Shown here one piece after another: positions 53 to 13,398 of a stretch of DNA of 64,000 nucleotides. This DNA comes from Candidatus Marinacidobacterales bacterium. Its GTDB lineage: Bacteria > Acidobacteriota > Vicinamibacteria > Marinacidobacterales > SMYC01. The notes beneath the pieces are model-generated. The model saw only the letters and a program-made list of their open reading frames with translations. It made no database searches and had not been told where the DNA came from. Both the position numbers and the translations under genes were made by a program. Location: assembly GCA_965237955.1 (NCBI GenBank), contig OZ250169.1:5440001-5504000 (forward strand), given 5' to 3'. Position 1 is the first letter of the stretch; the number at the start of each line of letters is the position of its first letter.

Positions 53-894
53 ATGGCCATCTTCCATACCTCTAGTCTGCTTTTTTTCAACGATCGGGCG
101 ATGGTTGAGTCCCCTGTAATCTACGCGTCGAAGGCCGCCCACGACGACCCTCTCTACTCACATCCGGAAGGAGAGACGCTAGACATCTTCGAGTTCATCG
201 CACGCGCTGACGCAGATTCCAGAGCCTCGCAAGCATGGCATTCACTAATATGTTGCGCGCCGATTTATGTAAAGTAGGACCTGTAACGCTGCATTAATAA
301 AGGATCGAGAGCCAGATAGCTTCACATAATATTTGGCGATCTGAGATTGCGAGGAACTCCAGGAATATCGTTTACGGTGCTTGTCTTCTTCATACCTTTG
401 TAAAAACATCTCTCTACTTCCTTTTTTAGAGCAATAAAGGAGAGACGCGCGATCGCAACGCGATGGGCTCGAGTCGATTTTTATGTTGAGTGAAAACGAA
501 CTCAAGTCTTTGGATTCAAGGAAATAGGGAGCGCACTTTGCATAAATAAGCGCGATACATATAAATGAAAATGTATCGCGATACGTTTCCTGTATTTCAG
601 TGCCTATTCTTCGAAAGCGCGAGCTTGCCGGGCAAAACAAAGCTCACGCTGCAATCGTTCGCTCTGAAGGATACCCAGGCCGCTCAGGATGAGCCTCCAC
701 TCTCACCGCAAAAGCGCGCCGCTCTGAGAAGAAGCTGGGCGCGCCTCATTCGACGGGTCTATCTTACCGACCCCTTGAAGTGTGAGTGCGGCGGCGAGCT
801 CCGCGTGATCGCGTTCCTTACCGACGACAAAGTCATTCGAAAGATCTTGTCGCATTTGGCGACGCGAACGACGGACTCTCGCGCTCCTCCCTAG
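53..894 (+). pseudogene. IS91-family (Y2) transposase, C-terminal remnant, interrupted and frameshifted
   Basis: Pieces read across frames as LDIFEFIARA-LTQIPEPRKHGIHY / FSAYSSKARA / SWARLIRRVYLTDPLKCECGGELRVIAFLTDDKVIRKILSHL...RAPP, the typical IS91 C-terminus. An oriIS-like TTTTTCCTATC lies near 1106-1116. Confidence 0.8.
246..594. mobile_element. Miniature non-coding RIT-type element inserted in the IS91 transposase
   Basis: Imperfect 30-bp inverted repeats at 246-275 and 535-564 (24/30 match). Paired (T/A)TATG motifs are 17 bp apart, with inward third sites near 320-330 and 481-491 and an outer palindrome near 567-589. AT-rich, and the transposase frame resumes after it. Confidence 0.65.
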
Positions 895-1158
895 CTCATG
901 CAGCCGTTCCCCAAAACCCCGTGGTTGTCTCCCGTCAAGCGCGGCCCGAATTCTGCCTGCACTCACCTTCTGCTTCCCTGAAGGATTAGCCACACGTCGC
1001 TTCTGCCGCTCTTGGGCTTTTGCTATTGCTCCAGGACGGACGGCATGGACCTTTCTCTCGTGCACGCTGACAAAATTGGCACCGGCACGCATCCGCCCGA
1101 CATGATTTTTCCTATCTCTTATCCGGAGCGACATAAGAAGAGGAATACGTGATACGTT

Positions 1159-1740
1159 TTACTTCCTGTCGACCCCGGACCAACGCTTGATCGTACCGGC
1201 ATCGAGCCCGAAAAGATCCAATACTCGACATACCGAGTGGTTGATGATGTCATCGATAGTTTTGGGATCGCTATAGAATGCAGGCATAGGAGGTGCTACG
1301 ACCGCACCCATTTCTGCCGCCTGGTAGAGTAACTTGCAGTGCCCGGCGTGCAGCGGGGACTCTCGCGGCATCAACACCAGCCTGCGGCTTTCCTTAAGTG
1401 CGACATCTGCGGCGCGGCAAAGCAAATTGTCGGCATAGGAATGTACTATCGCTGACAGCGTCTTCATTGAACACGGTGCCACAATCATCCCATCGGTGCG
1501 AAAGGATCCGCTGGAGATGCTCGCAGCCACATCATTGGTGCCATGAACAACATCAGCCAGCGCCTCGACCTCTTTCACCGTGTAGTCCGTTTCTATTCTG
1601 ACGTTCATTTTGCCGGTGGCGGACATCACCAAGTGCGTCTCAACATCGTTCTGACTTTGCAAAATCTCAAGGAGTCGTATCCCGTAGATGACACCACTTG
1701 ATCCCGAAATCCCGACAACTAGCCGCTGCATACCATGCAC
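1159..1740 (-). CDS. ubiX: Flavin prenyltransferase UbiX
   Basis: Motifs VVGISGSSGVIYG, ASISSGS, IVAPCSMKTLS, RAADVALKE, PRESPL and PPMPAFY. Confidence 0.95.
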   Translation of the reverse strand: MHGMQRLVVGISGSSGVIYGIRLLEILQSQNDVETHLVMSATGKMNVRIETDYTVKEVEALADVVHGTNDVAASISSGSFRTDGMIVAPCSMKTLSAIVHSYADNLLCRAADVALKESRRLVLMPRESPLHAGHCKLLYQAAEMGAVVAPPMPAFYSDPKTIDDIINHSVCRVLDLFGLDAGTIKRWSGVDRK

Positions 1741-1905
1741 TCCTTCGACTACTTACTTAGTGCTGCAGAACAAGTTTAGACGAACGCGCCATGCAGATTC
1801 TTATTGGCCGAATGACATGTCGCGCGTGTCTTTTTTGGAGTGTAGCACCGTTTGTTGATACGATGTTCGAGAACGCATTCGTCTGCACAATTGATGGGTT
1901 GGACT

Positions 1906-2454
1906 ATGGTGGAAAGGTTCTGGGATTTTTCAGTGCGAACCTATGGAGTGTCGGGCGTATCCCAGGCTTGTCTCGCCTTGCAGGACGAGCGCGGTGTTGA
2001 TGTCAACATGCTGCTCTATTGTATCTGGATTGGCGCAACTCGCGGTGTGTTCAACGAACAGTTGTACCGGGCGGCCATGGACTACTCACATGACTGGGCA
2101 GCTCACGTCGTGCGTCCGTTACGAGCGGCGCGAACCTGGATGAAATCGGAAGGTTGTCGCCGGGAAGGGGCGCCGGCCGAATCATGTATGTCCGTTCGCA
2201 AGCGAATCAAGGCCGTCGAGCTCGAAGCGGAAAAGTTGCAACAAGATGCGTTGGAGTCGTTTGCACTGGATCAAGACGGCGAACCCGAAAAGAATAATCA
2301 GGTGATCGCAGCGGTCGAGAACATCAAACGCTATTTCGCGGATATCGAAGTTCATCTCGACAACCGGGTCTGCCAAAACAGCGCGATCGTCGTAGGCGCG
2401 GCAATCGATGGGGCGTCACCGCAGCGGGTGGTGGACGCATTACATGGGGCTTAA
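1906..2454 (+). CDS. TIGR02444/DUF2390-like protein
   Basis: FWDFSVRTYG..GVSQACLALQD..GVDVNMLLYCIW, VVRPLRAAR and IKAVELEAEKLQQ. Confidence 0.8.
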   Translation: MVERFWDFSVRTYGVSGVSQACLALQDERGVDVNMLLYCIWIGATRGVFNEQLYRAAMDYSHDWAAHVVRPLRAARTWMKSEGCRREGAPAESCMSVRKRIKAVELEAEKLQQDALESFALDQDGEPEKNNQVIAAVENIKRYFADIEVHLDNRVCQNSAIVVGAAIDGASPQRVVDALHGA

Positions 2455-2582
2455 ACCTGGTGGGGAAAATTCGAGCGGGTCGGCGACGGACGTGGCCTTT
2501 CCCTTTCGTGGGAGCGTGCGCTTGAAATGAATCGGTTTGCCCTACCTAAGCGTGCGGGTTACCGTCTGGTAAACTGGACCGT

Positions 2583-2745
2583 GTGAAGGTCCGGGCGGTG
2601 ATTCGGTTGCTGAAGGATGGAGAACCTCGAAGGCAATCCCAGGCGACCCGACATCGAGATCTTCAATACGCAGTACGACCGGAACTCCGGCCGCGATCCG
2701 CAGTTGGAAGCAGCCGTAGAGGAGCTGTTGAGCGACCTGCGCTGA
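2583..2745 (+). pseudogene. Chimeric fragment: HicA-like N-terminus joined to an S41 (tricorn-like) peptidase C-terminus
   Basis: MKVRAVIRLLKDG (2583-2621), then in another frame ENLEGNPRRPDIEIFN...GRDPQLEAAVEELL-stop (2617-2745). Confidence 0.5.
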
Positions 2746-2769
2746 CGCGCACGACGACAGTCCCTCCCC

Positions 2770-3348
2770 ATGCCTTGCATCGGTGAAGCAGCAGCGCTCG
2801 GCACAGCGCTGTTGTGCTCCTTCACGTCCATTTTCTTCTCGGAAGCCGGCAAGCGTATCGGCGCCTTCAAGGTCAATAAGATCCGGCTGTTGATCGCGGT
2901 TTTGATCTACGGACTCGTGCTGCTGATCAAATCGGGATCGCCCATCCCTACGGGAATCGGCCAGGTCGCCATCTGGTGGCTCTGCCTCTCGTCATTGATG
3001 GGACTGGTCATAGGCGACAGCATGTTATTCAAGGCGTTCGTCGCTCTCGGGCCGCGACTCACCACGTTGGTATTTACCAGTTCACCGATCATGGCCACCA
3101 TTATTGCCTGGGTGTTTCTGGATGAGCAGCTCGGCGCCTGGGACATGCTGGGCATTGCCATCACCATGGCCGGCATCAGCTGGGTCGTGGCAGAGCGGCG
3201 CTATGCCAACACTAAACGCGTGCACGACGATCACCCCGACTCGATGTCGTTCGCCGTCGGAATCCTTCTGGCACTCGGGGGCGCGTTCGGGCAAGCGGCC
3301 GGACTCGTTTATCCAAACAGGCAATGTTGCACGCCGGCGAGGTGGTAG
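2770..3348 (+). pseudogene. DMT/EamA transporter, truncated early in the second repeat
   Basis: GEAAALGTAL, GLVIGD..LFKAFVALGPRL and AWVFLDEQL. Frameshift near 3310 and the second half is missing. Confidence 0.8.
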
Positions 3349-3576
3349 GTGCCTTCGCCTTGGAAAGCCGACGAAGAGGACCGCGCTCGCCTCGACCAGG
3401 GCCGGAAGCTTCCCGCACTCGCGCGCGTCATTGCCACTTGGGGGCTCGCGGTCGCGAGCGAGCGAGCGGGCGATGTCGCGGGCTCCGAGAGCCTCATCGC
3501 CGAGCTCCGCGAGGCCGCGCCCCACAGCGCTCCGCTTCTCCTGATCCCCCCGAGAAACGTCTAGCGTCGTCTTCCG

Positions 3577-5007
3577 GTGCTAGACTCGGGAATGAGGTTG
3601 CTGACGGTGCTCTTCATCAGCGCCGTGTCGGGCATCGGTTCCGCGGCCCAGGACGATTGGATTCAGGTTCAGAGCCCTCACTTCATCGTCATCACCAACG
3701 CGCGCCGCGGCGAGGCGTGGGACGTGACCGACGAGTTCGAGCGCATCCACGCCGTTTATCAGAGAGCGATCACACGCAAGCCGGACCGTCCTCCGCCGCC
3801 GACGGTGATCTTCGCCGTTACGGACAACCAGAGCTTTCGAGAGCTTCTACCCGACGCTCACGAGGAACTGGCGGGCAGGTTTCTGGAGTCGAAGGATGGG
3901 CCTCGCATCGTGCTCCGTCTCAACGTACCGGCCGAAGTGGGCCATGCGACTCTATACCACGAGTACCATCACGCCATGCTGCGAGCGAGCTATGGTCGGG
4001 GGACGCCGAGCTGGCTCCGGGAAGGTCTAGCCGAGTTCTGGTCGCAAGCAACGATCACGCTCAAAGACGTCGAGATCGGGACGGCCCATGACGCTCACCT
4101 CCAATACCTTCGCCGCCAGACCACCTTCGAGTTGGCTCCGCTGTTCGCGCCGAACGGCTCGACCCACGACATGGATCCTCGTGACCGGCGCGCGTTCTAC
4201 GCGAGCGCGTGGGTGCTCACCCACTGGATCCTGATGGCCGATCGAGGCGACGGCGAAGAGAAACTCAACCGCTACATCGAGAGTATCATGGAGGGTGGCG
4301 ATCCCAACGAGACCTTCGAATCGACGTTCGGGCCGGTCACGAAGGTCGAGTCCGAAGTAAGGCGCTACTTCCGTCAGTCGACGTTTTCGTCCAAGAGATT
4401 CCCGGCTCCAGCCGAGATCAACGAAGCGTTCTCGATTCGAGAGCTGAGCGCGGAAGAATCCGTGGCGCTCCGAAGCCGATTTCTGACGTCTCGCGGGCGA
4501 ACCGCGTCGACCAGAGGTTTGCGGGAGCGGACCGGGACTCTAGGCGTCGGCGCCGAAGCCGAGGGAGTCGAAGCCTTCGAAAGCTACGAGCTCGAACTCG
4601 CCCGCGAGCGCTTCGAAGAGGCCGTCTCCGCCGGCGCGGCGACCCACCTTTCGCACTACTACCTCGCGCTACTCTCCCAACAAGAGGGAGATCGCGCCAA
4701 CGTCGCGTCACGGCTGGAACACACGCTCGATCTCGACCCCGAGTTCGCGCCGGCCATCATCGCGCTCGCCGAGCACTACGCGCGCGAGCCGGAGCGAAGC
4801 GAGCGAGCGCTTGAGCTCGCTCGCCGTGCCCTCGCGCTCACGCCCGACGACCGGTTCGAGCTGGTGCGCCTCGGCCGAACGTTCGTGGCGCTCGAGCTGC
4901 TCGACGCGGCGCAAGACGTTCTCGCCCGCCTCAAAGCGATGCCGTCCGCTCCCGGAAGCGCGGCAATGATTCGCGCGCTAGAGGATGAGATAGCCCGCCA
5001 ACGCTAA
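3577..5007 (+). CDS. Secreted DUF1570-like (HExxH) protein with C-terminal TPRs; likely start 3592
   Basis: Signal peptide, WIQVQSPHF, YHEYHH...PSWLREGLAEF, FYASAWVLTHW and TPR-like helices. Confidence 0.75.
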   Translation: MLDSGMRLLTVLFISAVSGIGSAAQDDWIQVQSPHFIVITNARRGEAWDVTDEFERIHAVYQRAITRKPDRPPPPTVIFAVTDNQSFRELLPDAHEELAGRFLESKDGPRIVLRLNVPAEVGHATLYHEYHHAMLRASYGRGTPSWLREGLAEFWSQATITLKDVEIGTAHDAHLQYLRRQTTFELAPLFAPNGSTHDMDPRDRRAFYASAWVLTHWILMADRGDGEEKLNRYIESIMEGGDPNETFESTFGPVTKVESEVRRYFRQSTFSSKRFPAPAEINEAFSIRELSAEESVALRSRFLTSRGRTASTRGLRERTGTLGVGAEAEGVEAFESYELELARERFEEAVSAGAATHLSHYYLALLSQQEGDRANVASRLEHTLDLDPEFAPAIIALAEHYAREPERSERALELARRALALTPDDRFELVRLGRTFVALELLDAAQDVLARLKAMPSAPGSAAMIRALEDEIARQR

Positions 5008-5308
5008 AAACTTAGGAAATTAGATCCCGGTCGCTGCCTGGTGAACGGGCGGAATTGCGCCCGACGGTGTGCGGACGGGGGTTTTCGGTGCGCGGGTATG
5101 GGGATACAAGCGGCCGGTGCGGCATTGAGCCTAGGACAAAGTGTAGCGAGGGTGGTTCGGGCGCACGGGTCTCATCGAAAGACCCCTGAATGGTGCCAAC
5201 CGCTATGCCCGCGGCAGGGAGTCCGGCGGAATAGGAGGGTCCTTGTTATTACGATTTTCGAGATGGTTCAAGATCTGGCGGATGACGGAGGGCTCGGTCG
5301 ATTAGGTT

Positions 5309-7411
5309 TCATAATGCCCCCTTTCCTACAATCCAGGAATTGTGAGAGTTTTTGTTGTCGCGAGGGGTTGTTCGCGGACGGTAGTCCTTCGAAGCCTGCA
5401 CGGCCTGTTTGACTTGTGGTTCGTCGAGGTCGCTACGGCGGATACTCCACGGGACCGATGGCGCGGCCTGAAGGGCAGGCAAGATGCCGCGGCCGATGAT
5501 ACGCCGCACGGTCATGGTGCAGACGCCGAGAATGCTTGCCGCCTCGTTGAGAGTGAGCACCTCGCTCGGCTTGTCGTCGGACCGGTCCAGTGCGGGGAGG
5601 TTGTGGTAGGAACGGTAGGCCCGTACACGGCCCGCGTTCCAGGTTAGCCCCGTGCTCGTGTGGATGCTAATCCGGTTGAGAGTCAAGGCGATGTCGTCAT
5701 CGGAGAAGCGTCCCGCCAACTGCTCCATGATTTTCGAAGTCTTCTCGGCGCCAACGCGGCGATGTCCCGTGGTGTTCTTCCGGACTCGGCGCGTCGAGTG
5801 GATACCGCCCCTCCAGTGAATGACGGCTTCGATGGTGTCGCCGGCCTCGTTGACGTCGGCAACGATCTCCTCGACGAGCGTGCGCACGATGCGCTTTTTG
5901 AGGCGCATGTCCGTCGAAGGATCCTCCCATACCCTCGCGAAGTCTGAGCCCAACGTGAGCAGCTCCTCGGGATCAATCGCGCGCTGGGGTGATGGAGTTT
6001 GCTCCTGCTCGCGAAGACGCTCCTCAAGCGAGCGCACACGCAAAAGCGTCTCGTTCCAGCGCCGCTCGAGCTCACCCGTTACCAGCCGATTCTCAGGGTC
6101 GGAGGCGTCGTACTGGCGGAAGTTCCGCTCGGCCTGGTAGCGCGCCTGCTCCAGCTCCAACTCCACCGCCTGAAGATGCTCGTCCCTATCCTCGACCGCC
6201 ATTCGCCCTGCCGCGACCGCGGCTTCGATCGCGCCTGGCTCCAGCACCTTGAGGACCTCTTCCTCTACCGCTCGCTCCAGGCCGTTTCCACGAAAACCCA
6301 GACAGCTACGCTCGCCGTATTGGGCGACGGCACTCCGACATCGATACAAAGCGACGCCCTGTTTGCCGGAGTAATGCACGTGGAGCTTGCGCCCGCAACG
6401 GCCGCACCGAAGTAGCCCCGCAAGTAGGGCCCCGCCTTGTCGGGGCGCGCCCCTGACCATCCGCCCTTTCATGTTGGCATTCTCCTCCAAGAGCTTCTGA
6501 TTCCGCTCGTATTCCTCCCATGTGATGTAACCAGGATGATGGTCCTTGATCAAGACGGTCCACTCCGAGCGCGGCTTGTGATGACCGCGCGTGACATGGG
6601 CACGCTCGTCCACGATACTCGTGCGCGAACTCGTCCGGCCAAAGGCGTAGGCACCAGCATAGATGGGGTTGTTCAACATGTTCAACACCGTCGTGTAGCT
6701 CGGCAACGCCCAAGCAATCTCCGCATCCAAGCGGCGGCCACGGCGCTTGGGAAGCGCTATCTGCTGTTGACGCAGCCAGAACAAGCTCTGGCGCGCGCTT
6801 CCCAGCTCGCGGAACTTCGCGAACACCATGTCGAGGGCTTGTTGGATGCGCAGGTCAGGCCTCTTCTCGAGCGCGCCCTCTGCTGTCCACTGGAAGCCTA
6901 CCGGTACGAGGAATCGCAGCTCGCCTCTGACCGCCTTCTGATGCCTCGCCTCGAACGAGCGTTGACGAAACAGCGTCAACTCGTACTCGCTCATCGTGCC
7001 CTTGAGGCCGAGCAACAGTCGGTCGTTGCTAAAGCGCGGGTCGTAGATGCCCTCGGGGTCGATGAGCAACGTTCCCACCAAGCCACACAGATCGATCAGG
7101 TGATGCCAGTCGCGGTTGTTGCGGGCCAGGCGTGACGCCTCCAAGCACAAGACAGCTCCCACTGCGCTCAGAGAGACCTGGGCGACCAGTCTCTGGAACC
7201 CGGTTCGTCCAGCAAGAGTGGAACCCGAGCGGCCTAGGTCCTCATCGATCAGTTCCACGTCACCGAAGCCCAAGCTGCCTGCGTGCTCGACGAGCGCATA
7301 CTGCCGACGCTGGGACTCCAGGTTCTCGCGGACTTGTGTCGCGGTCGACTGCCTGACATAGACGATGGCTTTACGCGCGAGATGCTCAGACGTGATCTTG
7401 GCGCTCATCAT
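5309..7411 (-). CDS. Large serine recombinase with Zn ribbon, coiled coil and C-terminal excisionase-like HTH (Y4bA-like)
   Basis: AIVYVRQST catalytic Ser, EASRLARN, LNNPIYAG, LLRCGRCG...YRC and LTLNEAASILGVCTMTVRRII. Confidence 0.95.
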   Translation of the reverse strand: MMSAKITSEHLARKAIVYVRQSTATQVRENLESQRRQYALVEHAGSLGFGDVELIDEDLGRSGSTLAGRTGFQRLVAQVSLSAVGAVLCLEASRLARNNRDWHHLIDLCGLVGTLLIDPEGIYDPRFSNDRLLLGLKGTMSEYELTLFRQRSFEARHQKAVRGELRFLVPVGFQWTAEGALEKRPDLRIQQALDMVFAKFRELGSARQSLFWLRQQQIALPKRRGRRLDAEIAWALPSYTTVLNMLNNPIYAGAYAFGRTSSRTSIVDERAHVTRGHHKPRSEWTVLIKDHHPGYITWEEYERNQKLLEENANMKGRMVRGAPRQGGALLAGLLRCGRCGRKLHVHYSGKQGVALYRCRSAVAQYGERSCLGFRGNGLERAVEEEVLKVLEPGAIEAAVAAGRMAVEDRDEHLQAVELELEQARYQAERNFRQYDASDPENRLVTGELERRWNETLLRVRSLEERLREQEQTPSPQRAIDPEELLTLGSDFARVWEDPSTDMRLKKRIVRTLVEEIVADVNEAGDTIEAVIHWRGGIHSTRRVRKNTTGHRRVGAEKTSKIMEQLAGRFSDDDIALTLNRISIHTSTGLTWNAGRVRAYRSYHNLPALDRSDDKPSEVLTLNEAASILGVCTMTVRRIIGRGILPALQAAPSVPWSIRRSDLDEPQVKQAVQASKDYRPRTTPRDNKNSHNSWIVGKGAL

Positions 7412-7571
7412 CGCTCACCTCGCTTTCGCTCTTCGTCACTTCGGCGCGCCGAGCTGCTTCGAGCAGTAGCTGCTGCATCAACTGACGCAGTGTCTCCCGC
7501 GAGGATGTCAGAAGCTCGTTCCAGCGCGGGCGGTCGCTTTCGAACAGACACCCCTGTATCGGTCGTTTCAT
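7386..7571 (-). CDS. Small 61-aa ORF of the LSR element, overlapping both neighbours
   Basis: GGAGG SD upstream. PRWNELL..SRETLRQLMQQLLLE amphipathic helix; it ends inside the recombinase 5' end. Confidence 0.55.
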   Translation of the reverse strand: MKRPIQGCLFESDRPRWNELLTSSRETLRQLMQQLLLEAARRAEVTKSESEVSDDERQDHV

Positions 7572-7870
7572 CAGAAGGCACCTCCTTTTGGTGCCCTCTG
7601 GATAACACGGCTCGCAGAAGTTTCCCCATCTCCGACAGTGCCTCCATCGACGCCTGAGGCGAGCTCGCTAACGACAGTCCCGCGCAGTGCACCGCGTCCG
7701 TCATCCACGCCGGCACCGGAACAGGTGTCCCCTCCCGCGAGATGCACTGGTAATACGCCACGCCGCCGTGTCGCTGCACACTGCTCACGCTCAGGCACTG
7801 GCCGCAACGCGGGTGCCAGCGGTAGTGGACCGTTACTGAACCCTGTTCACGTGCAGTATGTGACTGGGTT
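7408..7870 (-). CDS. Accessory protein (Y4bD/DUF5372-like); the frame is open to the element end and its start codon lies at the other end
   Basis: VHYRWHP..GQ...VPAWMTD...C...P.AS..AL..M..LL. There is no stop and no ATG/GTG/TTG between 7870 and GTG 7788. Its stop overlaps the recombinase ATG. Confidence 0.7.
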
Positions 7871-9416
7871 GGTGATGAACGAGACGACGCGCATTCGGCC
7901 GCGGCAGTTTTTGCAAATCAACGGGTCGGTTTTGAACACACGGCGGATCAAGTTGGCCCATCGTCGGCGAAGGGTTTTACGCTGAGTGGCGTTGAGCTCG
8001 TTGTCGTCAGGTGCAGGTCGTTTCTTTCGGGTATGTTTTCTTGTTCGTCGGGCGTAGTGACCGTAGTACAAGATCGAATGCTGGTTGGGCTGGAAATCGT
8101 CCGCATTCGGGCTGCTTCGAGGGAATCAGATGTTGCGGGGCTGCTTCGAAGGACCCCTACCGCAAAAATGTGGATGAGCACGCGGGCGAGGAACTCGAGC
8201 GGGTCGAGGAGCTCGGCTTTTCTATTTTTTGATTTGGGCTGATAGAGAACGTAGTTGCTCTTTTTGTCGTAACGGAGTCTTTGTAGGGAGACGGGGCATC
8301 GGACGATGTAGCGAGAAAGGGATTCAAGGGCTTGGGTATCGGAGGGATATAGGTAGACATCATTATCGGTGCTAAAGCCGCTCCTGCGCCACGAACGGAG
8401 AATCTTGATGCGTTCGTCCGAGAGAAGGTCGTGTACTTGAAGAAGTCGAAAGATCTTCTCCCGAAACAGAATTTCCGCGGCGTGGGTGTCGATGTAGGGA
8501 ACAGGAATCCACTGTCCGTCGTCACGCCAGACGCCTCTGGAGACGATGGAGTGCAGATGTGGATTCCACTTCAAGTTGTCGGAGAAGGTCTGTATCGAGG
8601 CGACCATGCCGACGCGAACGTTGCTGTCCTCGACAGCAGCGGCCATGAGCTCGTGGACGGTTTCGTAGCCTGCGCGGGCGAGCTCGGTGAGGAGCTCTCG
8701 GTGGAAGAGAAAGTAGGGGCGGAGCATTTCGGGAATGGAAAAACTCCAGACGGCATGGCCGACGTCTTGCAAAAGCTCCTCTTGAAGAAAAGCTGCGAAG
8801 GCCGCGGCTCTTTTGGCGTCGCATGACGGACAAAGACTCCTGGCTTTGCACGAGAAGCAAGTAAGAATTCACTCCGGCAATCCTCGCAAACGATCCGGGC
8901 GAAACCTCCTTCTGGAACCCCGCAGTCAAAGTACCGTAGCACCACGTTGTCGACGAACCCGCGCCAATACCCATACACTTTTTCGAAGCGGTCCTCCCAG
9001 TGTGCGTATTCCAGCCATCGTGAACGCCGAATCCAGAGCAAGCTGAACAGCGAATCCGGTGAAGCCGAACGCTCATCGAAGCGATGAAGTGTTGGGTGAC
9101 CTCCTTCCCACTGATTGAAAACGTGAACCTATCTTACCTGCGTGTTGTGTAGCAAGGGGCGGCAGGTCGGTGCCGGAGGGAGCGGGCGTAAGGAAAGACG
9201 CGAAGCGACCTTCCCGCTCCCGTAGGCAGCGACCTGCCGCGGCCGAACCCCGGGCGATGTGGGGCTGGTTTCGGGGGGTTGCTGGGGTATGGCCTGGCTC
9301 GAGAAGACGCTTCCTGAGGCATTCTCGCGCGTCGTTTTGGCGCCGCATCGTCTGGTACCCCGGGTTTGGCGGTTTCACCCGTTTTTATCGCATCGACGCT
9401 GTGGTCCCTCGCTCGC

Positions 9417-10175
9417 TCATGCATCGGCGTTGTCAAATGCCTTTGGCGCAGCCTTGGTCTTTCTCAGAGAAGCTCCTTTGAGAGTGATGCGGTGCGCGCT
9501 GTGGAGAATGCGATCGCAGATAGCGTCTGCCTGGTTTGGGTCGCCAATCGCTTCGTGCCACTGCTTGAGCGGAATCTGGGTCGCGATGAGTGTGGAGCCA
9601 CGCTCGGCGCGGTCTTCGATGACCTCCATTAGATCCCGTCTCTCCGATTCTTTCAGCGGGTGAAGCAGCCAATCATCGATAGCCAGTAAGTCCAGCTTGG
9701 CGAGTTTCGTCAAAAGCCGGGCGTAGGAACCATCACCACGAGCGACCGCGAGCTCGTGGAGCAAGCGCGGTGCTCGCACGTAGCATCCGGTGAAGCCGCG
9801 ACGACAGGCCCGCTCCACGAAGGCGCAAGCCAAGAACGATTTGCCAATCCCCGTCGGGCCGGTGATGAGCAGGTTATGGCGCTCACCGACAAAGCGGCAG
9901 TTGCCCAGGCTCAAGATCTGTTCGCGGTTTAAGCCTCGAGGCGCTTGGAAGTTCACGTTCTCCAAACATGCCGGATAGCGGAGCTTTGCCGCTCGCAGTC
10001 GTCGAGAAAGCTTACGCTGTTCGCGGGCGGTCCACTCGGCATCGACCAGGAGTCCCACACGTTCCTCGAAGCTCAGCTCCTTGTATTCGCTCGAGCTCAA
10101 CTGGGTTTCGAACGCGGACACCAAGCCGAACAACTTCATGGCGTTTATCTTTTCTATCGTTTCGGGTGTCAGCAT
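9417..10175 (-). CDS. istB: IS21 helper ATPase
   Basis: GPTGIGKS Walker A, LLAIDDW Walker B and ADAICDRI. Confidence 0.95.
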   Translation of the reverse strand: MLTPETIEKINAMKLFGLVSAFETQLSSSEYKELSFEERVGLLVDAEWTAREQRKLSRRLRAAKLRYPACLENVNFQAPRGLNREQILSLGNCRFVGERHNLLITGPTGIGKSFLACAFVERACRRGFTGCYVRAPRLLHELAVARGDGSYARLLTKLAKLDLLAIDDWLLHPLKESERRDLMEVIEDRAERGSTLIATQIPLKQWHEAIGDPNQADAICDRILHSAHRITLKGASLRKTKAAPKAFDNADA

Positions 10176-11725
10176 CGGGACTCTCCTCCTTCGTAGTGAT
10201 CCGCGCCTCGGATGTTCTCGTGCTCCTCTCGCGGTTTCGCTTCGGCGTCCGATTCGAGCACCACACGATCCAGACCAGCCGAGAGAATGTTTTTCACCGT
10301 GCGATAGCTGTAAGAGCTCAAAGCTTCCGCTCGTGCGCAAGCGGCCTCGAGACGCTCACTGCCCCAGCGGCTGCCTAGTCGCATGACTCCCAGGCAAGAG
10401 CGAAATCCCTGCTCCGGGTGAGGCCGACTCTCTAGAATCCCCGCAACCAGCCTTCCCGTGGCGCGACCTGACTGCTCCGCCCAGTGGAGCAGCCGCGACG
10501 GCGTCCACTCCAGGTGCTCCCGATGCGAACGTGGCATATGCTCCGGGTTCGTGGAGTAGTGCCCCTTTCCTTTCTTGCGGGGATGCGACGCGACGCGCTT
10601 TCCCTTGAACAGGACCTCCACCACCGAGGCCGTCACCCGTGCCTCGACTTTCTCGTGAATGAGCTGATAGGGAACGCTGTACAAGTTGTTCTCCACCTCC
10701 ACGTGGTAGTCGATGTTCACTCTGCACCGCTTCCACGTCGATAACTCGTAGCTCTCCTGCGGTAGCGGTTTCAGTACGGGCCGGTCTAGCCTTTCGTACA
10801 ACTCCCGCCGACTCACACCGAGCTTCTGCATCGGACGCGCATTCAGGACCTCTAACTTCTCCCAGATGGCTTCGTTCAGTTCCGCCAGGCTGAAGAACGT
10901 GCGATGACGAAGCACCGCCAGGATCCAGCGCTGCGCCACCTGCACTGCCGACTCCACCTTCGCTTTGTCTTTCGGCTTGAACACCCGAGCCGGGACCACA
11001 ACCGCACCGTAATGCGTCGCCAGCTCTTCGTACGTCCGGTTGATCCCTGGCTCGTAACGGTCCACCAAATCCACGCCGCTCTTCAAGTTGTCCGGAACCC
11101 AGATCTCCGTACTGCCACCGAAGTAATCCGACATCCCCTTATGGGCCTTCGCCCACGATTCCAGCGACTGGTTCAGTGTCGCTTCGACGTAGGTGTAACT
11201 GCTCGCGCCCAACGTCCCGACGAACAGCTCCATTTCGACGAGCTCTCCCGTTTTCGGATCGACGATGTGAGGCTTCTTCCCCGAAAAATCGACGAATGTC
11301 TTCTCGCCTGCTCGATGCCGTTGACGCATCGTCGGGTTCAGCTTCTTCTTCCACTGACCGTACAGCTCGCAATAACGGCTGTAGCCGTACGCTCCCGGCT
11401 TATTCTCCGCGTACTCCACCCACAGCTGCAGCAACGTCAGCTCTCGGTGACGCCTCAGCTCCTCGTGGATGTGGGCATAGTCCAGACCCGGCCGTGCGCC
11501 AGACGAGCCCGGCGGCGGAAACAGCCCTGCCTCCAGCTCCCCGCCGCTCAGCTCCTCCGGGAGCGGCCAGCTCAGACCACCCTTCTTCGCCTTGGCCAGG
11601 TACTCACTCACCGTTCCAACCGCCACGCGAAGTGCCTTTGCGATCATGCGGTGAGTAAAACCCAGCTCGTACTTTAACCTTAGAACCTCTCGTATTTTTC
11701 TCATCGATAACCTCTTAGCTGCCAT
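10169..11725 (-). CDS. istA: IS21 transposase
   Basis: HTH, FVDFSG, VPDNLKS, KPKDKAKVESAV and YSVPY. Confidence 0.95.
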   Translation of the reverse strand: MAAKRLSMRKIREVLRLKYELGFTHRMIAKALRVAVGTVSEYLAKAKKGGLSWPLPEELSGGELEAGLFPPPGSSGARPGLDYAHIHEELRRHRELTLLQLWVEYAENKPGAYGYSRYCELYGQWKKKLNPTMRQRHRAGEKTFVDFSGKKPHIVDPKTGELVEMELFVGTLGASSYTYVEATLNQSLESWAKAHKGMSDYFGGSTEIWVPDNLKSGVDLVDRYEPGINRTYEELATHYGAVVVPARVFKPKDKAKVESAVQVAQRWILAVLRHRTFFSLAELNEAIWEKLEVLNARPMQKLGVSRRELYERLDRPVLKPLPQESYELSTWKRCRVNIDYHVEVENNLYSVPYQLIHEKVEARVTASVVEVLFKGKRVASHPRKKGKGHYSTNPEHMPRSHREHLEWTPSRLLHWAEQSGRATGRLVAGILESRPHPEQGFRSCLGVMRLGSRWGSERLEAACARAEALSSYSYRTVKNILSAGLDRVVLESDAEAKPREEHENIRGADHYEGGESRC

Positions 11726-11969
11726 TTCCTAGATCGTCCTCCTTCCGGGTACGACCTAGAGTTGCCTTGAAACGTGCTATCGATGAGCGTTCGCGATGCC
11801 GGAACCGGCGTTCACGTTGCCTGGAATCCGTGTTCACCTTCCCCGGAATCGATGTTCACGATCCCCGGAATCCGTGTTCACGATGCTTTGGAATGGATGT
11901 TCACCTTCGGCTGGAATCTGCGTTCACGATGCCCCGGAATACGCAATCTAAGACTACCCCCGGGTGCTT

Positions 11970-13398
11970 GAGGATATCCTGAATCTAGTTGAAATCGGTG
12001 AGTGACTCCCTTCAAGATCGTCGGTGTCAAAGCTGACGATCAAAAAGAAAGGAGCCACCCGGTGAGAGCAGATACGAAGAAGAGAAAGAATGCAACACAG
12101 ATGCTGAGGGCGACGCAGGAGCAAGAGTGGTGGGCGGATCAAGTTGTGCATGTGATGCTGGAGGGCAAGCGAGCGCTGGACGCCGCGATGCTCGATGTCG
12201 GACGCCTGGTAGCTGAGACGCTCATGTACATGGAGCGCGAAGAGAGATCTGGGCCAGACTACCATCCTACGTCGTCCGGGCTTCGCAAATGGGCGAGTCA
12301 ACGTGGGTCGATCTATGTCGGTGACCAGAAGCTCCCTGTCGAGCACCCTCGATTGCGGGGCCCGGAGGGTGAGGTCGGGCTGAGAACCTACGAGCAGCTC
12401 AAGAATCGCGGGGGCTTTTCGGAGGAACTCCTGTCGGAGGTGCTTCGGGGAATGTCTGCTCGCAAGTACGAAGAGACGGTGACGGCGGCAGGCAAGGCTT
12501 TCGGTGTGACGCCGAGCTCGGTGTCCCGCCATCTGGTCGAGGCGACGGCGAAGCAGCTGAAGCAGTTCCAGGAGCGCAGTCTCGAAGAGTTTCCGCTCTT
12601 CGCGATGTACCTAGACACGGTCCACCGCGGCGGTCAGGCGTTCGTGGTCGCGCTCGGCGTGGACCGTGAAGGGAAAAAGCTCCCCCTGGGCTTCTGGGAA
12701 GGGGCGACGGAGAACCACGAGATCTGCGAGGAATTGCTGGAAGAGTTGGAGCGACGGGGGTTAAAGCTCTCCAAACGGATCCTCTGGGTAACCGATGGTG
12801 GCGGGGGGATCATCAAGGCGCTCAAAGACCGATACGGCAAGAAGCTCATCCACCAGCGGTGTACTTTGCACAAAGACCGCAACATCCAGCGCCACCTGCC
12901 CAAACGCTACCGCAAGCAGGCACACCACCTCTTCGCGACTGCCTTGGAGCAGAACAGCTACAAGGACGCGAAGAAGATGTTGCAGGAGTTCGAGCGCTGG
13001 CTTCGCGACATCAACGAGTCGGCGGCAGACTCACTCCTCGAGGCACTCGAGGAGGTGCTGATGCTCCACAAGTTGAAGGTCCCCGCTCTACTGCGCCAGA
13101 GCCTGCACTCGACGAATCCTATAGAGAGTATGTTCTCCATGGTTCGTAGTTGCGAGCGCAACATCAAACGCTACCGTAACAGCAAAATGCGCCAGCGATG
13201 GCTCGCCGCTGTGCTGCTGCACTGCGAACAACAGTTCAGACGAGTCAAGGGGCACGCATCCATCGACGTAGTGGTTGCGGCCATCGATGCGATCCAACGA
13301 GAGGACGAGATGCCTGAGGCCGCGTAAGGTCAGGGGCGTAGAGCTGGAAATGACCACGAGTCGCTTATGATGGTTTCAACTAATTCCTTGACATCCTC
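11970..13398 (+). mobile_element. IS256-family element A
   Basis: IRs GAGGATATC..TAGTTGAAA / TTTCAACTA..GACATCCTC and an 8-bp TSD GGGTGCTT (11962-11969, 13399-13406). Confidence 0.95.
12062..13327 (+). CDS. IS256 transposase
   Basis: MYLDT, VTDGG, QRCTLHKDRN and STNPIES. AAGGAG SD before GTG 12062. Confidence 0.9.
   Translation: MRADTKKRKNATQMLRATQEQEWWADQVVHVMLEGKRALDAAMLDVGRLVAETLMYMEREERSGPDYHPTSSGLRKWASQRGSIYVGDQKLPVEHPRLRGPEGEVGLRTYEQLKNRGGFSEELLSEVLRGMSARKYEETVTAAGKAFGVTPSSVSRHLVEATAKQLKQFQERSLEEFPLFAMYLDTVHRGGQAFVVALGVDREGKKLPLGFWEGATENHEICEELLEELERRGLKLSKRILWVTDGGGGIIKALKDRYGKKLIHQRCTLHKDRNIQRHLPKRYRKQAHHLFATALEQNSYKDAKKMLQEFERWLRDINESAADSLLEALEEVLMLHKLKVPALLRQSLHSTNPIESMFSMVRSCERNIKRYRNSKMRQRWLAAVLLHCEQQFRRVKGHASIDVVVAAIDAIQREDEMPEAA

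Follow-up and report, generated by a model that had tools for sequence, protein, structure and literature searches.

How can a gene be translated when its start codon lies at the opposite end of the mobile element that carries it, pointing outward into host DNA? This question is raised by a large serine recombinase (LSR) element of Candidatus Marinacidobacterales bacterium (Acidobacteriota, assembly GCA_965237955.1), which lies on the minus strand of the window analyzed here, that is, a whole stretch of 64,000 nucleotides (contig OZ250169.1, positions 5,440,001 to 5,504,000). Besides its recombinase the element carries an accessory gene, orfA, and the crossover would fall inside the fifth-to-sixth codon of this gene. 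The answer that we consider reasonably probable is that orfA is split by the crossover while the element is integrated and is translated only from the excised circle, where its product perhaps serves as a cofactor of re-insertion.

The split start of orfA

The features on which the argument depends are listed below, in coordinates of the window.

5296..7873, minus strand: the LSR element, delimited by empty sites in its own genome and in contigs of sequencing runs, and by the offset of the host protein (N=2575)
7408..7872, minus strand: body of orfA, 154 codons without a native start; its stop overlaps the LSR start, and the motif YRWHP lies at 7824-7810
5298..5323, minus strand: right attachment (att) arm, with an outward Shine-Dalgarno (SD) sequence at 5323-5317, ATG at 5312-5310 and the first five codons of orfA
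7850..7872, minus strand: left att arm, corresponding to orfA codons 6-13; CAT (His) at 7860-7858 mirrors the start ATG
5296..5298, minus strand: right crossover region ACC; its dinucleotide 5298-5297 is start codon +14/+15, from empty sites and homologues
7871..7873, minus strand: left crossover region ACC, with 7873-7872 as the likely crossover dinucleotide, from empty sites
5309..7411, minus strand: LSR of 700 aa, with Resolvase, Recombinase, Zn ribbon and HTH_17 domains
7386..7571, minus strand: orfB (61 codons), which lies within the orfA tail in its +1 frame, has the SD AGGAGG at 7586-7581 and overlaps the LSR start

An earlier note on this DNA, made from the letters alone, had described an accessory frame lacking a start, an outward SD and ATG at the far end, and a 159-codon reading frame formed when the two ends are joined at the shared ACC. 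All three descriptions are borne out. No ATG, GTG or TTG precedes GTG 7788 in the minus-strand frame, which is open from stop to stop over 7917-7408. The note was right that this frame is open through the element, but not that it opens at the element end (7870), as it is already open from 7917 in host DNA. The outward SD (energy -10.1 in this copy) and ATG encode a peptide of 14 codons in the integrated form, and the joined frame consists of five right-end codons followed by 154 codons (7872-7411).

Where does the crossover fall? Two empty sites in the same genome (C1:1453404-1453856 and C1:1580808-1581038), and empty-site joints skipping exactly 2575 bases in contigs from five of eight sequencing runs, set it at start codon +14/+15 and the length of the element at 2,575 bp, to which the ACC common to both ends (3 bp) is to be added. 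A different crossover point, which the earlier note had named as fatal to its idea, is therefore not what the empty sites indicate. The insertion point is the 3′ end of an IS91-like transposase gene (IS, insertion sequence), and insertion is conservative at a short core, without target duplication beyond it, in the window, the homologues, the multi-copy groups and the run contigs alike. A general repeat search at the element ends gave nothing useful.

Is this arrangement peculiar to one copy? The homologue set comprised the best 80 of 456 GTDB loci, a second element of the same genome and one metagenome locus. Nearly all right ends of the homologues show a purine run and ATG close behind the LSR stop. 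The left ends, which read ..HSAY....YPWHP, are start-less. Of 53 loci, 42 have the same dinucleotide at both ends at start+14/+15; when the offset is shifted, only 0-12 do. Most homologues are inserted in IS66 tnpB, and the split position is identical in the five genomes checked. For the register of the joined frame, element length was taken from the offsets of both halves of the interrupted host protein, a measure blind to the orfA frame. Of 82 loci (L044 excluded), both ends with sufficient flanking sequence were available for 50. Host protein anchored the element on either side in 37 of these, namely 24 and 12 in the two tnpB orientations and the window. The joined orfA is in frame in 36 of these 37, with exactly 27 nt between ATG and the His codon in 34 of the 36. 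The rate thus exceeds the one in three that chance would give, as the earlier note had predicted, but it weighs less than it seems, because one ancestral spacing may have been inherited. Nor is any internal start conserved: 25 of 58 left ends have one, at scattered codons. The claim therefore holds across the family: integrated orfA lacks a conserved start, and in register with the crossover the opposite end carries an SD and a start that are conserved. Among 23 homologues in databases the N-termini are unrelated or late, and none is of the junction type.

Boundaries can also be set without any host protein, by comparing multiple copies of one type. Groups of 8, 3, 3 and 2 copies are identical up to start+15, have the dinucleotide +14/+15 in common and are in frame, with a spacing of 75 or 63 nt; a 7-copy group has the identical dinucleotide at both ends at the start+14/+15 spacing. 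The single-copy loci L150, L156, L157, L168/169, L174 and L175 gave no usable pair of ends, and for L151 and L173, where the scan for shared bases was ambiguous, in-frame placement follows host-gene continuity judged by eye. As far as sequence comparison goes, the split-start layout is common to relatives across many bacteria.

Signals other than spacing bear on translation itself. Mean SD energy is -7.85 in the right arm, against -3.09 in the mirrored arm and -3.35 in the background. In-frame stops occur at none of 47 junctions, compared with 31 and 13 in the other two frames. Arm-to-domain segments (n=57) have three length variants, every one a multiple of 3, and the ATG spacing differs between branches by whole codons (48, 63, 75). 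The in-frame ratio of non-synonymous to synonymous variation (pN/pS) is 0.34 at right-end codons 2-5 (16 pairs, which are few), and 0.57 in the left arm, 0.51 from arm to motif and 0.14 in the motif (23 pairs). Two lineages have CTG at the canonical start position and two have GTG; in these the next codon is an ATG in frame. Judged on all of these together, translation from the joined site is likely, and so is translation of orfA only after the element has looped out as a circle.

The products of the element

The LSR scored above cut-off for PF00239, PF07508 and PF13408, and PF12728 was also matched; the catalytic residues Y18, R20 and S22 are invariant among 47 LSR sequences. The earlier note had also reported an overlap between the stop of orfA and the start of the LSR (7411-7408), which is real and kept in most homologues. 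In addition, the orfA tail is free of stops in 64 of 66 cases, versus 13.2 expected under synonymous recoding of orfB, and the third frame is so in 10 of 66. Such openness agrees with selection acting on a coupling with the LSR start, or else on the tail as such.

The nested orfB was overlooked in the earlier note. With its SD and start it is found in 72 loci. It has the family motif QLxL...ALADLLLEALG, and its product is predicted to form a single helix; no family of Pfam or NCBIfam matched it. Of 72 homologues, 63 have a QLxLxL/QLxLF-like motif at the start of orfB. Most LSRs terminate in ..xLPG[FIL]. Both are sequences that we take to resemble the binding motifs of the beta sliding clamp.

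What kind of protein is OrfA? Against DUF5372 (PF17342) it scored 13.2 bits (E 0.095), below the Pfam cut-off of 25 bits, while 30 of 55 aligned homologues matched at E <= 1, the best at 5e-07. In an Atlas search the first hit had 0.94 and 29 of 30 hits were DUF5372. On sequence grounds orfA is thus DUF5372-related, though under the cut-off. AlphaFold predicts with confidence a barrel with helices at about residues 10-93, followed by a disordered tail. A Foldseek search of orfA gave no significant match (best E 0.031), and the best VIA matches (Z 5.7) were SH3/KOW-type barrels, a common arrangement. The likeness of the model to an SH3/KOW/Tudor-type barrel is weak, and it shows no function.

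The proposed circle and rival explanations

How might such an element move? Insertion, as the empty sites and copies show, is conservative at a 2-bp core, 14 nt past the start codon, with targets that are mostly other IS genes (IS66 tnpB in both orientations, IS91-like) and once an apparent tRNA end. In the integrated element a conserved start is lacking for orfA, but not an SD of their own for orfB and the LSR. Low expression of the LSR and orfB, probably by read-through from the host IS, may then lead to occasional excision. At the joined site, the frame of which can be read directly from the two ends, SD, start and orfA would be restored, presumably on a transcript running across the junction, and ribosomes completing orfA would reach the LSR start, the tail being kept open. 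The att site may thus be regarded as a translational sensor of the state of the element.

We give somewhat less than an even chance to the further proposal that OrfA is a cofactor of the circle state that, with the additional LSR, causes the element to re-insert at another target. A role in integration is favoured because a protein made only by the circle cannot start excision, and orfB is available in the integrated state. If true, OrfA would assist integration, and so do the opposite of what known excision factors do. The fuller picture is doubtful, and we offer it tentatively: the nested orfB, with its sliding-clamp-like motif, would serve the integrated state, and a circle-only, SH3-like cofactor coupled to the LSR would serve integration, in minimal LSR elements that are widespread, prey on other IS and have in attP a switch of translation.

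Another possibility, rather unlikely yet the best of the alternatives, is that the gating is the same and the job opposite: OrfA would be a recombination directionality factor (RDF), a brake on re-insertion or a helper in excising further copies. Known LSRs require a small partner for excision but none for integration (PMC12286644), and RDFs have no common fold (10.1101/2024.08.21.608926), so that an SH3-like fold is compatible with such a role. The first excision, however, cannot depend on a factor made only by the excised form. For the integrated state orfB, having its own SD, is a better candidate for an excision factor than OrfA, and up to 8 copies of one type per genome speak for efficient re-insertion.

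Circle-only translation of orfA itself has several observations weighing against it. One anchored row (L052) is out of frame, as is L005, slightly below the score cut; 13 of the 50 rows were excluded for weak anchors; and homologues are kin, not independent trials. An upstream in-frame host start exists in 21 of 58 integrated copies, and 10 of these 21 have an SD of -4 or below, as do 39% of background windows. The earlier note had named internal starts of homologues upstream of the motif as a refutation; no internal start is conserved in the family, and L170 has two internal ATGs close to the motif. The circle was not seen: a junction-pattern scan of metagenomes gave 4 hits, all of them integrated in IS66 tnpB with a chance host ATG; viral contigs gave 0 matches; a circle or tandem junction was found in none of 50 element-bearing genomes (of roughly 70 source genomes); and no back-joint was found in the assembled contigs of 8 of 22 listed runs. 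It is to be noted that the search patterns would match 40, 46 and 48 of 55 known junctions, and that these negatives do not amount to absence because contigs and assemblies lose rare forms. No minus-strand promoter of the sigma-70 type was found, in a scan that performed at chance (1 found, on the wrong strand, versus 1.1 expected). Finally, the two arms are imperfect inverted copies of each other about the crossover, and CAT mirrors ATG (profiles of 58 left and 66 right ends). Therefore, binding of the recombinase would by itself suffice to keep the spacing fixed, and a single ancestral accident could account for the in-frame count.

In four loci (L081-L084) the ATG of the host tnpB is in frame with orfA by chance, and a fused orfA could be expressed there while integrated.

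The mirror symmetry leads to an explanation that we regard as improbable, in which the split start is a by-product of att geometry: ATG and the purine run would bind the recombinase, the frame would be an ancestral accident, and orfA would be translated otherwise, through host fusions or from non-standard starts. The repeat indeed pairs not only ATG with CAT but also an upstream ATGC with GCAT, some copies have in-frame host starts, and no search found a circle. Recombinase binding alone, however, does not account for the unequal SD strength of the two arms, for a canonical start whose first base may be C or G with ATG one codon on, or for the synonymous variation in the right-end codons. In the 8-copy type (G284), by eye, the mirror of ATG is not CAT. 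Host fusion is excluded in 22 of 58 integrated copies, in which an in-frame stop lies within three codons upstream of the crossover.

The earlier note had gone further and proposed a closed translational loop of two genes, coupled by ATGA at both joints. In its favour, the overlap of the orfA stop and the LSR start is conserved and selected at one joint, and at the other joint the LSR stop is near the outward start in nearly all copies, with ATGA also in a few distant ones (a 3-copy type of G284, and L173). Coupling by ATGA at this second joint is, however, not supported. The last ~14 residues of the LSR are altered in this copy by a +1 frameshift near 5349, where related run contigs lack a base; the C-terminus of the family (KTL..PG.*) is in a different frame here, with its stop TAG at 5328-5326. 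Of 72 right ends, 69 have 15-18 nt between the beginning of the LSR stop and the ATG, one has 42 nt, and only 2 have the ATGA overlap, which in this copy is the product of a local frameshift and not a feature of the family. In 77 of 81 cases the LSR is equipped with an SD of its own, and it therefore does not need to depend on orfA. Since orfB is present as a third gene, the circle is not a two-gene loop, and a distant branch combines a short orfA with different genes and non-coding gaps. The loop is accordingly quite improbable.

It is very improbable that the joined site arises mainly in tandem copies or cointegrates, so that gating would report the presence of attP and not excision: by sequence logic any attP junction would restore orfA, and a free circle was not seen, but neither the 50 genomes nor the metagenome scan held a tandem junction, and the lack of target duplication beyond the core is as expected of LSR excision and integration.

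Relatives, precedents and surroundings

How far does the family extend? LSR relatives occur in 15 of 61 close genomes, and canonical DUF5372 elements, whose LSRs are 36-40% identical, in 12 of 301 genomes of the same phylum and 6 of 401 of another; relatives of orfA appear in 211 plasmid records, mostly rhizobial. In this canonical branch (L139-L149, L178) a helix-turn-helix (HTH) gene and another small gene lie between orfA and the LSR, with no nested orfB.

One such element is on pNGR234a of Sinorhizobium fredii NGR234 (NC_000914.2, 33989-37258). Like the element of the window, it has a homologous LSR (38% identical), a DUF5372 gene at its left end, a crossover at start+14/+15 and an SD-led start at the right end in frame. 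It differs in its size (3,320 bp), in its short, tail-less orfA, and in having an HTH gene and an 88-codon gene in place of the nested orfB. The element of the window does not have the gene order DUF5372-HTH-small gene-LSR, as its orfA has the nested orfB and there is no separate HTH gene. The annotated GTG of the pNGR234a DUF5372 gene has no SD (-0.7). Presumably these genes are the ones named y4bD and y4bA, although the names are absent from the NC_000914.2 record.

Are there precedents? Among the closest are archaeal suicidal integrases of the SSV type (SSV1, pTN3, pT26-2; PMC8371274), in which a recombination site likewise lies in a gene that is whole on the circle and split when integrated. 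In those systems it is the gene of the tyrosine integrase that is split, and such integrases are called exclusive to archaea (PMC8371274). The system of the window is bacterial, its serine recombinase stays whole, and the att site lies in the accessory gene orfA, which is deprived of no more than its SD and five codons. In mycobacteriophage BPs (PMC4557955) attP is also within a gene whose product depends on the integration state. Integration of BPs drops a C-terminal degradation tag, and the integrated form is active, whereas the element of the window loses an N-terminus together with the SD, and its circular form would be active. Promoters formed at circle joints are known from ICEclc and ICEKp1 (PMC13023037), from TnpX of Tn4451/Tn4453 (by the title of a reference in PMC13023037) and from IS110/IS1111. 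These likewise switch on expression when the ends join, but at the level of transcription, while the joint of the window element supplies a translation start and N-terminal codons. With LSR/RDF pairs (PMC12286644) it has in common the recombinase architecture, the 2-bp core and small neighbouring genes. No RDF with a start split by attP was found in the literature searched, nor any mention of DUF5372, and a start codon parted from an accessory gene by an LSR crossover was not found described in this literature, outside which lay subscription papers and older NGR234 papers. The available text of PMC10083194 and PMC12286644 does not mention this element family, and supplements of PMC10083194 may list these recombinases.

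What would it mean? Translation initiation would join the ways by which mobile elements sense their integration state. DUF5372 would gain a role that can be tested, and the inconsistent or missing annotated starts of its members would be explained. If OrfA or OrfB controls the recombinase, they would be new cofactors of serine integrases for genome engineering, of a kind not discoverable from integrated sequence alone.

The host gene of the window element is in two parts, which lie outside the element and serve as context.

7874..8868, minus strand: 5′ part of the host IS91-like (Y2) transposase, in more than one frame
5221..5295, minus strand: 3′ remainder of the interrupted IS91-like transposase gene, from empty sites

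As for other targets, the flanks of L005-L080 show that an identical codon of IS66 tnpB is hit in both orientations, with a core that is mostly CC or GG and matched to orientation. L172 (G734:C7) is inserted at an apparent tRNA gene end (by eye), with 10 bp shared; its spacing is shorter, at 48 nt, and it has a GTG-ATG double start.

The window itself holds a nest of mobile elements at 565-13327, with IS91-like fragments at 565-894 and 7948-8868, an IS21 pair at 9417-11725 and an IS256/Mutator transposase at 12002-13327. The second family element of the same genome (C1:~319776-322410), whose LSR is 43% identical, has a split start as well; its crossover was set to start+14/+15 by comparison with a copy at another site, and its right end is adjoined by an IS21 copy. 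The genome has a third copy of the LSR, a partial one, at C1:4097334-4097566.

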